A stretch of DNA of 63,647 nt, filler included, from Reclinomonas americana ATCC 50394 (GCA_048213135.1; 18 parts of 18 records of this genome joined end to end with filler, not necessarily neighbours in it), one strand, 5' to 3'; positions 15,059 through 20,008 are shown, counted from the whole stretch's first letter. Numbers and translations are program-made. The notes: generated by a model not told the origin, from the sequence alone.

Positions 15059-18000
15059 GTGCTGGTGGTCGCTGGATGGTCGGGCGGTGGCAAGTCGGTG
15101 CTGCTGCGCCAGCTCACCACTCGCCTGCATGCGCGCAACGACACGCTGGTGTTGTCGGCTCGTCTTCCCGCCCTTCCTCGTGAAGAAGTGCTGCGCAAGC
15201 CAGGAGCGCTGCTGCCTTATCTCCTGCACGAGGCCAACGAGGCCGTGGATGATAGGAAGATGCAGGTGACAGAGGATGAGGTGAGTATGTTTGTGTTTGG
15301 TTGGCATTCAGATTCGTGGTGGTTTGTGTGGAGCTGGGAGCATGATGTTGAGTCTCGAGAAGTTTGCTCGCATCTGTCCCTGTACGCACATCTTTCTCTC
15401 TCTGTCTGCTTACGCATTTCACTTCCTATTTTTCTCACTCGACTTCCAGTCTCTTTTGCTCGCTTATCTCTCTATGTGGAGTCATCTACCTTGCTCTTTC
15501 CCAGATACTTTCACTTTTGCACATTGGTTTTCTCTTGTGAATGTACATGCTCCCCCCGCTCTCTCCATCTTCACTTTGTCTCGCTTTAGGTTGCACAGTC
15601 TCGTCCTCTTTCACATTTTTGTCTCTCCTAAAGGTCAAGGTTGCTGGACGTTGTGTCCTTTCTCTCCTCCTCTGTTGAGAATACACTTTCTCTCACGCAG
15701 TCTTCTTTCCCCAATGCACTCTTCTATCGTTCTTGCAAGCATCTCCCTCACTCTCAGTCTCTGTCTCAGTCTCCGTCTCAGTCTTTCTTCCCTCTCTCTC
15801 CGTCTCTTTCTCAGTCTCTCTCTCCCCGTCACTATTTCTCAGTCTCTCTCTCTCTCTCCGTCTCTCTCTCTCAGTCTCTCTCCGTCTCTCTCTCTCAGTC
15901 TTTGTCAGTCTCTCTTCCCCCTCCTCTCTCTCCGTCACTCTTTCTCTGTCTCTCTCTCTCTCTCTCCGTCTTTTTCTCTCTTACGGTGCGTCTCTCTCTC
16001 CCTCCGCCACCACTCGCTGTCTCACTTTTTCTGTCAGCGTGTATCTCTCCACATTGATGGTTTCCATGCACGCTCTGTTCCTACTTGCCTCACATTTGTC
16101 ACATCACACAGCTTCGACGCATCGGCACCGTTGTGCTGGTGCTCGACGGATATGACGAGTGCAGTGAGGCACCCGGTAACTTGTTTGTCAACCATGACCT
16201 GGATGTTACGTTGTCATGCCAAGTGGCGTGAAATGCACGCATGCAGTGGAGTGACTCGACTCACTGAATCGTGCAGAGTTGGCCCAATGTGCTGCTGGTG
16301 GTGTCGGTGCGACGCGAGTTCATCAGCCGCCTCGGCAACTTCTGGGCTGAAGAGCACTTTGTGCCTGTGGACCCGAAGCTGTCGCGCGCCGAGCGGCTTC
16401 GTCAGTCGGAGCGTACGCTTGTACGATGTATGCTGCGTCTGTTCTCCAAGGACGACATTGATCTCTTTCTGCAAAAGTTGAGTGCCATCGCTGCTCTGCC
16501 GTGCTTGTTCACGTGAGTGCCACATTCATTTTTGTGTGAGCAGGTTTGTGCACGTGGAGTCACGAGCGGATCACCCTCGCTCATGGGAGCAGTACAAGCA
16601 GCAGATCGAACGCACGCCGGGATTGGATGGACTGGCTTCGTCGGTGAGTCGTTGGTGATGGAAAGAGACAGAGTGCGCTCTGATATCGACGCGAAGAGTA
16701 TTGTGCGAGAGCGACAAGAAAAGCGACAGCACAACAAAAGAATTTCACATGTGCATGCAGTGGCGGCGGTGGTACTCACTTTCCTCATTTTCCTCGCTTT
16801 CCATAACAGCCCCTGATGTTGAATATGATTGTTCTGGTGATGGAAGATCTGGAACGGATGCAGCACCGCCATGACGGCGCTGGCGGTGGCACTACACTCT
16901 TCACGAATCGTGTGACTCGTGCACGGTTGTATGAGGCGTTTGCCAAACACAAACTGCGCTGGGAGTTTGAGCATCACCGAGTGCACATTCGTCAGGTGTG
17001 CCGTTGGCGTTTTTGGATAGTAGTGTGGAATACATGCCTTCTTACAAGATCATTTTTGCACAGTTGTATGGCGACGAAGAATCAGAAGAGGATTTCTGTC
17101 TGCGAGTGTGGGACTTCTGCGCAGAGCTTGCCGGGGAGATGATGCAGCACTCGCTGGTATCTGTACGGCAGGGCAAGCTGGAGGTTTGTTTGCTTCAGGG
17201 AGACGTGCGCAGATACTCACGTTACCTCATTCCTCTGTCATCACTTTCCCATCACAGCGCACTCAGCAAGCCGTTGCGGAGCGAGATGTGTGGAACAAGT
17301 GGTTTGATCGCGATGATCCGCTGCAGAACTCGCTTGTGCGCGCTGTTGCGTTGTGCTGCGTGACTGTGTTGTCCATCAGTTTGTGCGTCTCTCACATGCG
17401 AGAGACGAGGCAGGCGCTGCTCAAATGGAGTCGACTCGGAGCATCGCAGCAGCGTGTGGAGTTCATGCACAAGTCGGTGCTGGAGTACTTTGCCGCTCAG
17501 TCGTGGCTGGCTGATGTGCAGATGTTTGTCAACGAGGAGGTGGAGTTGGAGGTGAGCAGCGCCGTGTATCCTTGCCTTTGCCAGATGCTCGATTGTTAAA
17601 CCTCTCTTTGTACAGGATCGACTCGACAGACTGTGCTCAAGCTTCAGTGGCCAGCGGACATTGCTCACATCAGATGAAGTGAGTACATTTACATCATCAT
17701 TCATTGTGCTCATGACAATTACTCACTCTTCCTTTGATTGTTGTTGCAGGGACTCAATTCCATCCTGTCATTCATCGCCGAGCAGGTGCAAGCTGATCCG
17801 TCTCTCCATGACGTGCTGTGGAAGTCCGTTACTCATTCACGCACGGAGGAGAGAGTCACGGCCGTCTCGTCGAGTGCGGCGAGCGCGTTGTGTCTCGCGG
17901 AGGTGTCGTTCAGTGGGCGAGACCTGTCGGGCGTGCGAATACCAGGTGCGGATCTGAGGGATGCAGTGATGCACAGGACAGTGTGGAGGGGAGCTGATCT

Positions 18001-20008
18001 CCGTGGGGTGAATCTGTGTCTGGCGTTTGCAAAGGAGGCGGATTTCAGAGGGGCGGATGTGACAGGTGTGAGGTGGCCGAGGAAGCCTATGGTGGGTCAC
18101 ACTCACTATGTGAATTCTGTCGCCGTCACTCCTGACGGTCATCACGTGGTGAGTGGGAGCAAGGACCACACAGTTCGAATGTGGTCTGTGACAAGCGGCG
18201 AGGAGGTGCTGCGATTGGAGGGACACGGCGATGAAGTGATGACAGTCGCCATCACCCCAGACGGCCAGCGCACTGTGAGCGGTAGCGTAGATGGCACGAT
18301 ACGAGTGTGGTCGCTGACAACGGGCGAGCAAGTGCAACTGCTGGACGGGCACACTGATCCAGTGGAATCTGTTGCCGTCACGCCCGATGGTCAGCACGTT
18401 GTTAGTGGTAGTATGGACAAGACTGTACGGGTGTGGTCACTGACAACTGGAGAAGAAGTGCGACGATTTGCGGGACATGATGGGCTTGTGTCTACTGTCG
18501 TCATCACCCCCGATGGTCAGCATGTGGTGAGCGGGAGTTGGGACCAGACCTTGCGAGTGTGGTCCATGACTACTGGAGAAGAGGTGCAACGGTTGGAGGG
18601 GCACACTAACTGGGTGCATGCAGTGGCGGTGACCCTTGACGGCCAGTATGTTATTAGTGGGAGTCAGGACCGGTCGGCGCGTTTGTGGTCACTGGCAAGT
18701 GGTGCGGAAGTGCGACGGTTTGAGGGCCATTCGTATGCAGTAACGTCTGTTGCAGTCACAGCAGATGGTCAGCACGTTTTTAGTGGGAGTGATGATAGGA
18801 CTGTGCGAATGTGGTCTGTGGCGAGTGGGGAAGTGGTGCAGCGATTGGAGGGGCACACTTTAGAGGTTCGATCTGTCACCGTCACTCCTGACGGTCACCA
18901 TATCGTGAGTGGCAGCGTTGACAAGACGCTTCGTGTGTGGTCAATTGCTAGTGGAGACGACGTGCGACGACAGCGAGGGCACACTCGAAAGGTGCTTGCT
19001 GTCGCCGTCACCCCAGATAGTCAACACATTGTGAGCGGAAGTGAAGACAACACTGTGCGAATGTGGTCGGTGGCGAGTGGAGAAGAAGTGCGGCGATTGG
19101 AGGGACACACGTGGCCATCGTGCTCAGTCGCTGCCACTCCCGACAGCCAGTACGTGGTGAGTGGTGGTTGGGACTGGGCTGTGCGAGTGTGGTCTGTGGC
19201 GAGTGGAGAGGAAGTGCGGTGTTTCGATGGGGATGCTGGAAAGGTAAGATCAGTAGCCGTCACTACCGATGGTGGGTACATTTTGGGTGGCAGTGACAAT
19301 AACCTAGTGCGTGTATGGTCATTGGTGACTGGGGAAGAGGTGCGCCAGTTTGCGGGACACACCGGTGCCGTGTATTCAGTCGCAGCCGTTTCGGACTGCA
19401 AGCATGCTGTGAGTGGGAGCAAGGACAAAACAGTGCGAATGTGGTCCTTGGTGACTGGAGAAGAGGTGCGATTGTTTGTGGGACATACGGACAAAGTGCG
19501 GTCTGTCGCGGTCACTCCCAATTCACAGTGCGTTGTGAGTGGGAGTCGAGACAAGACTATATGTGTGTGGTCACTAAATACTGGAGACGAAATTCGGCGG
19601 ATGGAGGGACATACGGAGGGGGTGCGTTCCGTTGCTGTCACTCACGACGGACGGCATGTTGTGAGCGGCAGCGATGACCAAACAGTGCGTATATGGTCAC
19701 TGGCGAGTGGCGAGGAGGTGCAACGGTTGGTTGGGCACACGGATGTGGTGTATTCTGTCGTTGTCGCTCCCGACGGCAAGCACATTGTGAGTGGCGGTCG
19801 AGACAGGACAGTGCGGGTGTGGTCGGTGGTGACAGGAGAGGAAGTACCACGAGACTCTGAGATCGAGATCGCAAGCGTGTGTCACGGCACAGACGCCACT
19901 GCCGATCGTACTAATCGAGTAGATGGCGAGACGATGAACGCAGGGATGCTTGTGCGGATATGTGGTGCATTCTTCATGCCTGATTTTACTGATGCGTTGT
20001 ATGAGTAA
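15059..20008 (+). CDS. NACHT-like STAND NTPase + pentapeptide repeats + 14 WD40 repeats (NLR-like); 5' end unresolved
   Basis: Walker A GWSGGGKS (~15075), Walker B LVLDGYDE (~16135), FMHKSVLEYFAAQ (~17462), FSGRDLSGVRIPGADLRDA, then 14 repeats of 42 aa from 18095. Confidence 0.85.

Follow-up and report, generated by a model that had tools for sequence, protein, structure and literature searches.

Does a WD40 array that varies strongly at a few positions of a conserved scaffold mark a receptor whose specificity is still diversifying? The question is raised by a gene in a 63,647-base stretch of DNA (the window; that is, the whole stretch analysed), which as seen occupies positions 14998–20008 on the + strand and encodes a NACHT nucleoside triphosphatase (NTPase) module, a short pentapeptide-repeat stretch and 14 WD40 units. 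The original prediction described it as a protist NOD-like receptor (NLR)-like protein and as part of a diversifying innate-immune repertoire. The analysis supports a eukaryotic, NLR-like (STAND) NACHT-WD40 gene with introns and found no sign, in its sequence, of ongoing diversification at the variable columns. We think it likely that the gene, which is cut at its 5′ end, encodes a STAND-class switch in which the differences between blades are old and form a fixed, asymmetric binding surface, with no diversity generator running.

The last exon (exon 9; 17750–20008, +, with the stop codon) encodes a helical linker, the pentapeptide repeats, the 14 WD40 units and a 49-residue tail, and the corresponding open reading frame (ORF; 17738–20008, 756 codons) is open through 2.27 kb. 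PF00400 matches this ORF in 14 WD40 stretches (expect value E 6e-144), and 42-residue cuts from nucleotide (nt) 18095 place the 14 units in register, with zero indels and no differences in unit length. The pentapeptide-repeat stretch (17888–18073, +; ~60 residues) matches PF00805 (E 2.1e-12) and PF13576 (E 2.2e-4) and carries the motif GVRIPGADL, which is common to the proteins P0079, P0095 and P0103. With the Walker motifs (see below), these matches confirm the predicted layout of an intron-rich NACHT part followed by a single long exon with pentapeptide repeats and exactly 14 WD40 units of 42 residues, and with it the domain order NACHT, pentapeptide repeats, WD40 array. The residue triplets that follow GH in the 14 units are exactly those originally listed.

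Units 1–7 (18095–18976, +) were modelled with AlphaFold2 from a 17-row alignment assembled from non-overlapping blocks of metagenome loci. The model is a closed 7-blade β-propeller (predicted local distance difference test, pLDDT, 96.7; predicted template modelling score, pTM, 0.92) with 27 strands in an a-b-c-d pattern, the strands of each unit spanning residues 6–11, 17–22, 26–31 and 37–42. Foldseek aligns it with solved 7-blade propellers (PkwA, WRAP-T designs, 2ymu) at template modelling (TM) scores of 0.92–0.95 and root-mean-square deviations (rmsd) of 0.7–0.9 Å. By sequence, the closest solved chain is 2ymu_A, a 577-residue repetitive WD40 protein (E 2e-156 for units 1–7), and the Apaf-1 propeller 3sfz is also among the solved matches (E 2e-55). 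Units 8–14 (18977–19858, +), which are 59% identical to units 1–7, would form a second propeller. The DHSW tetrad is complete in 13 of the 14 units, unit 10 being degenerate (D-G-N-W). The consensus-type propellers 2ymu, PkwA (5yzv), WRAP-T and WDR5 resemble units 1–7 in sequence, fold and tetrad, but they are isolated propellers or parts of kinase-linked or other proteins and are uninformative on the ligand of the gene studied here.

Variation among the 14 units is concentrated in columns 4, 5, 7, 23 and 25, each with 7–10 residue types and 2.6–3.1 bits of entropy; the remaining columns have 0–1.9 bits, except for a weaker sixth, column 42, at 2.3 bits. In 100,000 simulations that distributed the 175 non-consensus residues evenly over the 42 columns, the observed variance was never reached and the top-five sum was reached 6 times, so the strong variation on a conserved scaffold noticed originally stands. 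The strand positions place columns 4 and 5 in the d-a loop and columns 23 and 25 in the b-c turn; column 7 falls at the beginning of strand a. The a-b loop (TPDGQ) and the c-d loop (SGE), on the opposite face, are conserved. As given in the available part of the source, WD40 blades have three general top-face contact positions, R1-2, R1 and D-1 (Wu et al., 2012, PMC3419727), and by that rule columns 5, 7 and 23 are these positions; hotspot-type residues occupy 31 of their 42 sites. With faces assigned by loop identity and the same rule on the units 1–7 model, the variable columns are predicted to lie together on one (top) face of this confidently modelled 7-blade propeller, which agrees with the single-face clustering that the original prediction called for. 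The positions are also those of a fungal precedent: in the portion of Paoletti (2007, PMC1805685) available, positive selection in HET-E acts on codons 7/9 and 25/27, on either side of the conserved codons 8 and 26, and columns 5/7 and 23/25 here flank V6 and D24, making them positionally equivalent, as had been proposed.

The repeats do not show the divergence pattern of such a system. Their mean DNA identity is 64% (range 53–75%), and their protein identity averages 56% with a maximum of 74%. Over the 91 repeat pairs, the proportion of synonymous differences (pS) is 0.63 and saturated, and for that reason a true ratio of nonsynonymous to synonymous rates (omega) is not estimable between repeats. 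At the five variable columns the proportion of nonsynonymous differences (pN) is 0.66 against a pS of 0.82 (pN/pS 0.81), and pN exceeds pS in 32 of the 91 pairs; for the 35 non-variable columns these values are 0.19 and 0.61, and pN exceeds pS in no pair (0/91). The comparison of nonsynonymous and synonymous change across repeats that had been suggested as a check thus gave no nonsynonymous excess, at synonymous sites that are saturated. The substitution pattern indicates a scaffold kept by long purifying selection and not by recent copying, and the variable columns look unconstrained or long fixed. In Podospora, according to the available parts of two studies (PMC1805685, PMC4986451), the repeats are ~85–100% identical, evolve in concert and have an omega above 1 at the equivalent codons, in contrast to the 56% identity, saturated pS and pN/pS of 0.81 found here. 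The fungal criterion for highly internally conserved repeats, in what is available of Dyrka (2014, PMC4986451), asks for identity above 85% across 100 residues or more, and the WD40 units here fall below it.

Two further WD40 arrays in the window allow a comparison between loci. Array B (52880–53896, +), on a separate contig, has 7 WD40 units, the first of them cut by an intron or the contig edge, and is 48–56% identical (tblastn) to the array of the NACHT gene, here array A. Array C (48406–49638, +), on a third contig, is more degenerate and ~40% identical to the A and B units. The three share an unusual, lineage-specific flavour (..VTPDGQHVVSGS..VWS..), the array B consensus reading ..VTPDGQHVVSGS..VWSL.SGEEVRRLE. 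Mean unit identity, computed from all 14 A units and six of the seven B units, is 0.575 within A, 0.550 within B and 0.554 between A and B. Because A and B units are as alike as A units are among themselves, there is no concerted evolution. Contig ends or introns truncate arrays B and C, and their contigs show no NACHT or NTPase; the count of paralogues proposed originally, made within the window, yields two more related WD40 arrays, with no NACHT part on either contig. Three arrays in ~60 kb of sampled contigs hint at a sizeable family.

The same columns vary in other proteins. Among 240 fetched proteins, 27 have at least 10 complete units; these comparators include fungal arrays and bacterial kinase-, CHAT- and NTPase-linked arrays. 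In this sample, which is biased because it was chosen by similarity to array A and its units were cut with an array-A-derived profile, columns 7, 23, 5, 4 and 25 belong to the top five for variability in 27, 26, 24, 15 and 14 of the 27 arrays, respectively, and median internal identity is 0.53, compared with 0.565 here. Since the same columns vary in the comparators, the pattern is the family look of consensus-type WD40 arrays. With a DNA identity of 64%, saturated pS, internal identity below 85%, equal likeness within A and between A and B, and the same columns variable elsewhere, the membership of a diversifying repertoire claimed for the gene is not borne out.

The NACHT part lies upstream of the long exon and is interrupted by nine introns. 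The gene as modelled from the sequence has 10 exons and a stop-free product of 1175 residues. The introns measure 831, 72, 67, 166, 68, 74, 69, 64 and 71 nt, eight of them within 64–166 nt; all nine begin with GT and finish with CAG, and their content of guanine plus cytosine (GC) is 0.37–0.53 versus 0.52–0.62 for the exons. The model was chosen among 24 frame-open splice alternatives scored with a profile of the NACHT region made from 6 family members, the best reaching 104.9 bits (E 5.8e-33). An initial model with a 31-nt intron and an unsplit exon 7 scored 84.7 bits, against 104.9 for the best, and was dropped.

Exon 1 as seen (14998–15280, +) encodes the Walker A P-loop GWSGGGKS, has weak matches to AAA_22, nSTAND5 and AAA_16, and ends at the donor GAG/GTGAGT; the original start at 15059 is thus superseded, as the P-loop exon begins at 14998. 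Its acceptor is in phase 2, and so at least one exon is missing upstream. Exon 2 (16112–16204, +; an alternative donor at 16222 scores lower) encodes the Walker B motif VLVLDGYDE, and both Walker motifs, GxxxxGK[ST] and hhhhDG.DE, are intact. Exon 3 (16277–16476, +; donor AAAA/GTTGAG) continues the NACHT core past Walker B (NVLLVVSVRREF...) and was aligned to P0079; its donor at 16476 was preferred over 16512 (104.9 vs 94.1 bits with the family profile). Exon 4 (16544–16643, +) and exon 5 (16810–16995, +; PLMLNMIVLV...) belong to the helical part of the module, and exon 6 (17064–17183, +) has an equally possible donor at 17156, with scores within 0.4 bits. Exon 7a (17258–17344, +) is split from exon 7b (17414–17551, +) by a 69-nt GT..CAG intron (17345–17413), a split that raises the family-profile score. 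Exon 7b encodes the winged-helix end of the module (VEFMHKSVLEYFAA), and in the region of the winged-helix motif F.H.S..EY the sequence VEFMHKSVLEYF is aligned with YRFLHRSVLEYF of P0079. Exon 8 (17616–17678, +) is a short linker exon. The contig that carries the gene (14540–20998) is preceded by an assembly linker (N44-TTAATTAATTAA-N44, 14440–14539), at which the 5′ exons, together with any N-terminal domain, drop out of the assembly. The original prediction was right that no N-terminal effector domain is visible; the cause is this break in the assembly, which cuts off the gene's own 5′ end, and not a feature of the gene.

The first 538 residues of the product can be aligned over their whole length with five PF05729 (Pfam NACHT) proteins (blastp E 9e-35 to 5e-27): P0079 (E 9e-35; 28% identity over 540 columns), P0210 (E 2e-33), P0238 of Mortierella alpina (E 4e-31), P0219 of a Nitrospirae metagenome-assembled genome (MAG; E 1e-28) and P0217 of Entomortierella parvispora (E 5e-27). 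P0171 of Linnemannia schmuckeri matched the first splice model (E 4e-6). Precomputed domain lists give NACHT, pentapeptide and WD40 families for all six. PF05729 occurs in at least 17 listed proteins, and the NACHT part matched only those that bear pentapeptide repeats; P0124 was matched in the linker/pentapeptide part and not in the NACHT part, and neither the HET-E-1-labelled P0141 nor other NACHT-WD40 proteins without pentapeptide repeats matched the NACHT part at E≤1e-3. The fungal HET-E/HET-D comparison of the original prediction accordingly holds for the variable positions; the NACHT part matches the NACHT-pentapeptide-WD40 family instead of P0141. In a tree, the gene groups with 14 other rows against three pentapeptide-only outgroups with support of 100/100, and the long row P0220 joins the same group. 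The family NACHT profile gives 105 bits here and 214–600 bits for core members.

Scanning genomes with the family alignment returned 11 loci, with the NACHT-PPR-WD40 layout in seven loci of Mycoavidus cysteinexigens MAGs and one gammaproteobacterial locus. The ARM-like domain PF23948 precedes NACHT in three of the five bacterial N-termini scanned (L034, L038, L040; E 5e-28 to 3e-120); the corresponding region of the gene here would lie beyond the contig end at 14540, and no ARM_5 (PF23948) or phosphoesterase similarity was found anywhere in the window. One of the Mycoavidus loci (L037) has two near-identical NACHT ORFs. Other searches found less. Protein searches with the linker/pentapeptide part returned mostly generic pentapeptide proteins, the useful ones being P0079, P0095 and P0103; protein searches that included the whole last exon among longer proteins gave generic WD40 arrays at ≤50% identity and no near-identical relative. 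A metagenome scan gave 33 loci and no orthologue, the best being 54% identical over a short piece and only L026 sharing part of the NACHT region. Taken together, sequence comparison identifies the gene as a very divergent, intron-bearing member of the known NACHT-pentapeptide-WD40 kind.

That kind has been described as a family of NACHT-PPR-WD40 NOD-like receptors shared by Mortierellomycota and their Mycoavidus endosymbionts, in the part of Ciach et al. (2024, PMC11291939) available. Its members (P0238, P0217, P0171, L034–L040) have the same order of NACHT, helical part, GVRIPGADL pentapeptide stretch and WD40 arrays, and are collinear with the gene here over 520–570 columns (E 1e-27 to 1e-34; profile 104.9 bits). 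The gene is set off from them by its nine introns, by a long branch, and by an identity of 25–29%, compared with 45–50% between fungal and Mycoavidus members (PMC11291939, same part).

HET-E, HET-D and HET-R (the nwd/hnwd genes) have in common with the gene a NACHT module and 42-residue WD40 units. To our knowledge, HET-E has no pentapeptide stretch. These proteins vary at the same four codons around a conserved V and D on the binding face, as far as the available text of PMC1805685 goes.

In bacteria, the bNACHT anti-phage proteins have a tripartite effector-NACHT-repeat layout, with β-propellers and pentapeptide repeats among the sensors (Kibby et al., 10.1101/2022.07.19.500537); the portion of that source available states no tested member with a NACHT-pentapeptide-WD40 architecture. 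P0219, which aligns with the gene here, has the order metallophosphoesterase-NACHT-pentapeptide-WD40. It matches the PADLOC candidate PDC-S60 (E 8e-61) and, below the 790-bit cut-off, the NCBIfam model DS8_antiphage (E 1.4e-41, 142 bits). The gene here differs from bNACHT in being eukaryotic and intron-bearing, and its link to defence is only indirect, through these matches of P0219.

The probable switch protein runs from an N-terminus beyond the contig through the NACHT NTPase, a helical and winged-helix part and a short pentapeptide β-helix to two 7-blade WD40 propellers, the second of them predicted. If it works like Apaf-1, animal NLRs and bacterial NACHT/Avs proteins, the propellers would keep it inactive and nucleotide-bound. 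A ligand that binds the blade-specific top-face residues of the double propeller would release the NACHT module, which could then oligomerise with nucleoside triphosphate (NTP), and the oligomer would bring together the N-terminal domains, encoded beyond the contig end, to signal or kill. An immune role is plausible.

Several observations weigh against this reading as a whole. Scored as single exons, exons 1 and 2 reach 16.6 and 14.5 bits with PF05729, for which the gathering score is 26.7, and the two partial matches, obtained with the exons scored separately, are collinear (exon 1 to profile positions 2–71, E 0.0073; exon 2 to 80–99, E 0.033). The NACHT part is 25–29% identical to every relative; its branch in the tree is very long (2.61 changes per column) and leaves its placement within the group open; and an exon 1 search of 1.84 billion representatives returned one protein at E≤0.001 (E 1.4e-5). 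The junctions at 16204/16222, 17156/17183 and 17344/17359 are predictions from profile scores. Finally, repeats that are old and purified would fit a housekeeping role equally well.

An actively diversifying repertoire of innate immunity or allorecognition, in which selection and repeat shuffling create specificities as in Podospora HET-E/D/R, would account for columns 5/7 and 23/25 flanking V6 and D24 just as the selected codons of HET-E flank 8 and 26 (PMC1805685, available part), for their predicted place on the ligand-binding face, for three related-array loci in ~60 kb with their hint of a sizeable family, and for the defence-type matches of P0219 among the relatives of the NACHT part. 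We nevertheless hold it unlikely. The mean identity of the repeats is 64% in DNA; in protein it is 56%, and even the most alike pair, at 74%, stays below the 85% of the fungal criterion (PMC4986451, available part); pS is saturated at 0.63, and even at the variable columns pN (0.66) stays below pS (0.82), with pN above pS in 32 of 91 pairs. The likeness of units within A (0.575) matches that between A and B (0.554), speaking against concerted evolution; the 14 units have neither indels nor length differences; the columns in question are in the top five in 27, 26, 24, 15 and 14 of the 27 comparators; and no near-identical paralogue or orthologue was found in the 33 metagenome loci or the protein searches. 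The age of the repeats would also suit a regulatory or scaffolding STAND protein outside immunity whose propellers bind fixed cellular partners, such as TEP1, NWD1 or NPHP3, or Apaf-1 with its endogenous ligand. Eukaryotic NACHT-WD40 proteins with non-immune roles exist. The repeats here are ancient, purified and fixed in number (2 x 7), with 13 of 14 tetrads complete and no sign of rapid turnover, and Apaf-1 (3sfz, E 2e-55) is among the solved matches. Against such a role stand the closest relatives, which belong to a family described, in the available part of PMC11291939, as NOD-like receptors moving between endosymbionts and fungi, and the bacterial P0219, which matches anti-phage models. 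A housekeeping gene would also be expected to have orthologues in other eukaryotes, and none was found in the protein, 1.84-billion-representative and metagenome searches. This explanation, too, we regard as improbable.

It is very hard to credit that the locus is an artefact or a dead copy, that is, a bacterial contaminant gene or a pseudogene fragment on a short contig. The assembly is fragmented and mixed, with an AT-rich contig (26810–32084) that carries a YadA-stalk ORF, the gene lacks its 5′ end, and its best WD40 matches are bacterial. However, nine canonical spliceosomal introns run across the NACHT part, and the frame is open only once these are spliced; the GC content and TC microsatellites of the contig are like those of neighbouring eukaryote-type contigs (proteasome, CFAP68, EMC3, HGSNAT); there are zero stops in 1175 codons; and the scaffold is under purifying selection (pN 0.19 vs pS 0.61). 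A 5′-cut STAND-class switch with old, fixed differences between its blades remains the reading that we favour.

The window is a chain of ~18 small contigs and not one chromosomal stretch. They are joined by 17 linkers of the form N44-TTAATTAATTAA-N44 (7699–7798, 11108–11207, 14440–14539, 20999–21098 and 13 more), and adjacency across a linker has no genomic meaning. An ORF with BNR/Asp-box and sortilin-Vps10 matches (13317–14438, +) is cut at its contig end just before the linker that precedes the NACHT gene and is unrelated to that gene. Eukaryote-type genes occur on other contigs, namely those for a proteasome alpha subunit, a ClpB-like ATPase, CFAP68, EMC3, HGSNAT and a TPT transporter. For the proteasome alpha-5 fragment the highest-scoring solved chain is 7qve_l. 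ClpB/Hsp104-like ORFs with AAA_2 and D2-small matches, and a further AAA ATPase, lie at 2293–3813 (+) and 4612–6849 (−); the top database matches of the ClpB-like piece are all bacterial ClpB, at ~47% identity, and no close eukaryotic relative was found among them. Weak matches to CFAP68, a cilia/flagella protein, and to a Macro domain occur at 40803–41756 (−) and 46065–46658 (−). The CFAP68 match points to a flagellated eukaryote and is the sole hint at the biology of the organism; 'protist', the label given in the original prediction, is a guess. The AT-rich contig has a GC content of 0.33–0.38, compared with 0.52–0.63 elsewhere, and includes an 865-codon ORF (29454–32051, −) with the YadA-stalk match (E 4e-10), and appears to be bacterial although it sits in a eukaryotic assembly. 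Long (TC)n, (CA)n and (GA)n microsatellites occur in introns and at contig ends (14540–14700, 15700–16000, 20000–26000 and other ends); they yield long spurious SLSL/HTHT/ERER ORFs and probably cause assembly breaks. An Rfam scan of the window gave zero matches.

For scans that rely on sequence, the array is a caution: a conserved scaffold on which the residues behind GH and those around SGSxDx are hypervariable is normal for consensus-type WD40 arrays, and such a pattern argues for diversifying selection only if the scaffold is near-identical at synonymous sites as well. For the family, a tentative and rather doubtful scenario is that a flagellate lineage gained a bacterial NACHT-pentapeptide-WD40 receptor independently of Mortierellomycota, intronised it with nine introns and multiplied its WD40 module into a lineage-specific family that includes arrays A, B and C. 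If this scenario holds, a free-living unicellular flagellate would use NLR-type intracellular sensing. If the organism is a non-fungal flagellate, a further eukaryotic lineage would have received the NACHT-pentapeptide-WD40 layout, known from bacteria and early-diverging fungi, and would have kept the receptor long enough for nine introns to arise.

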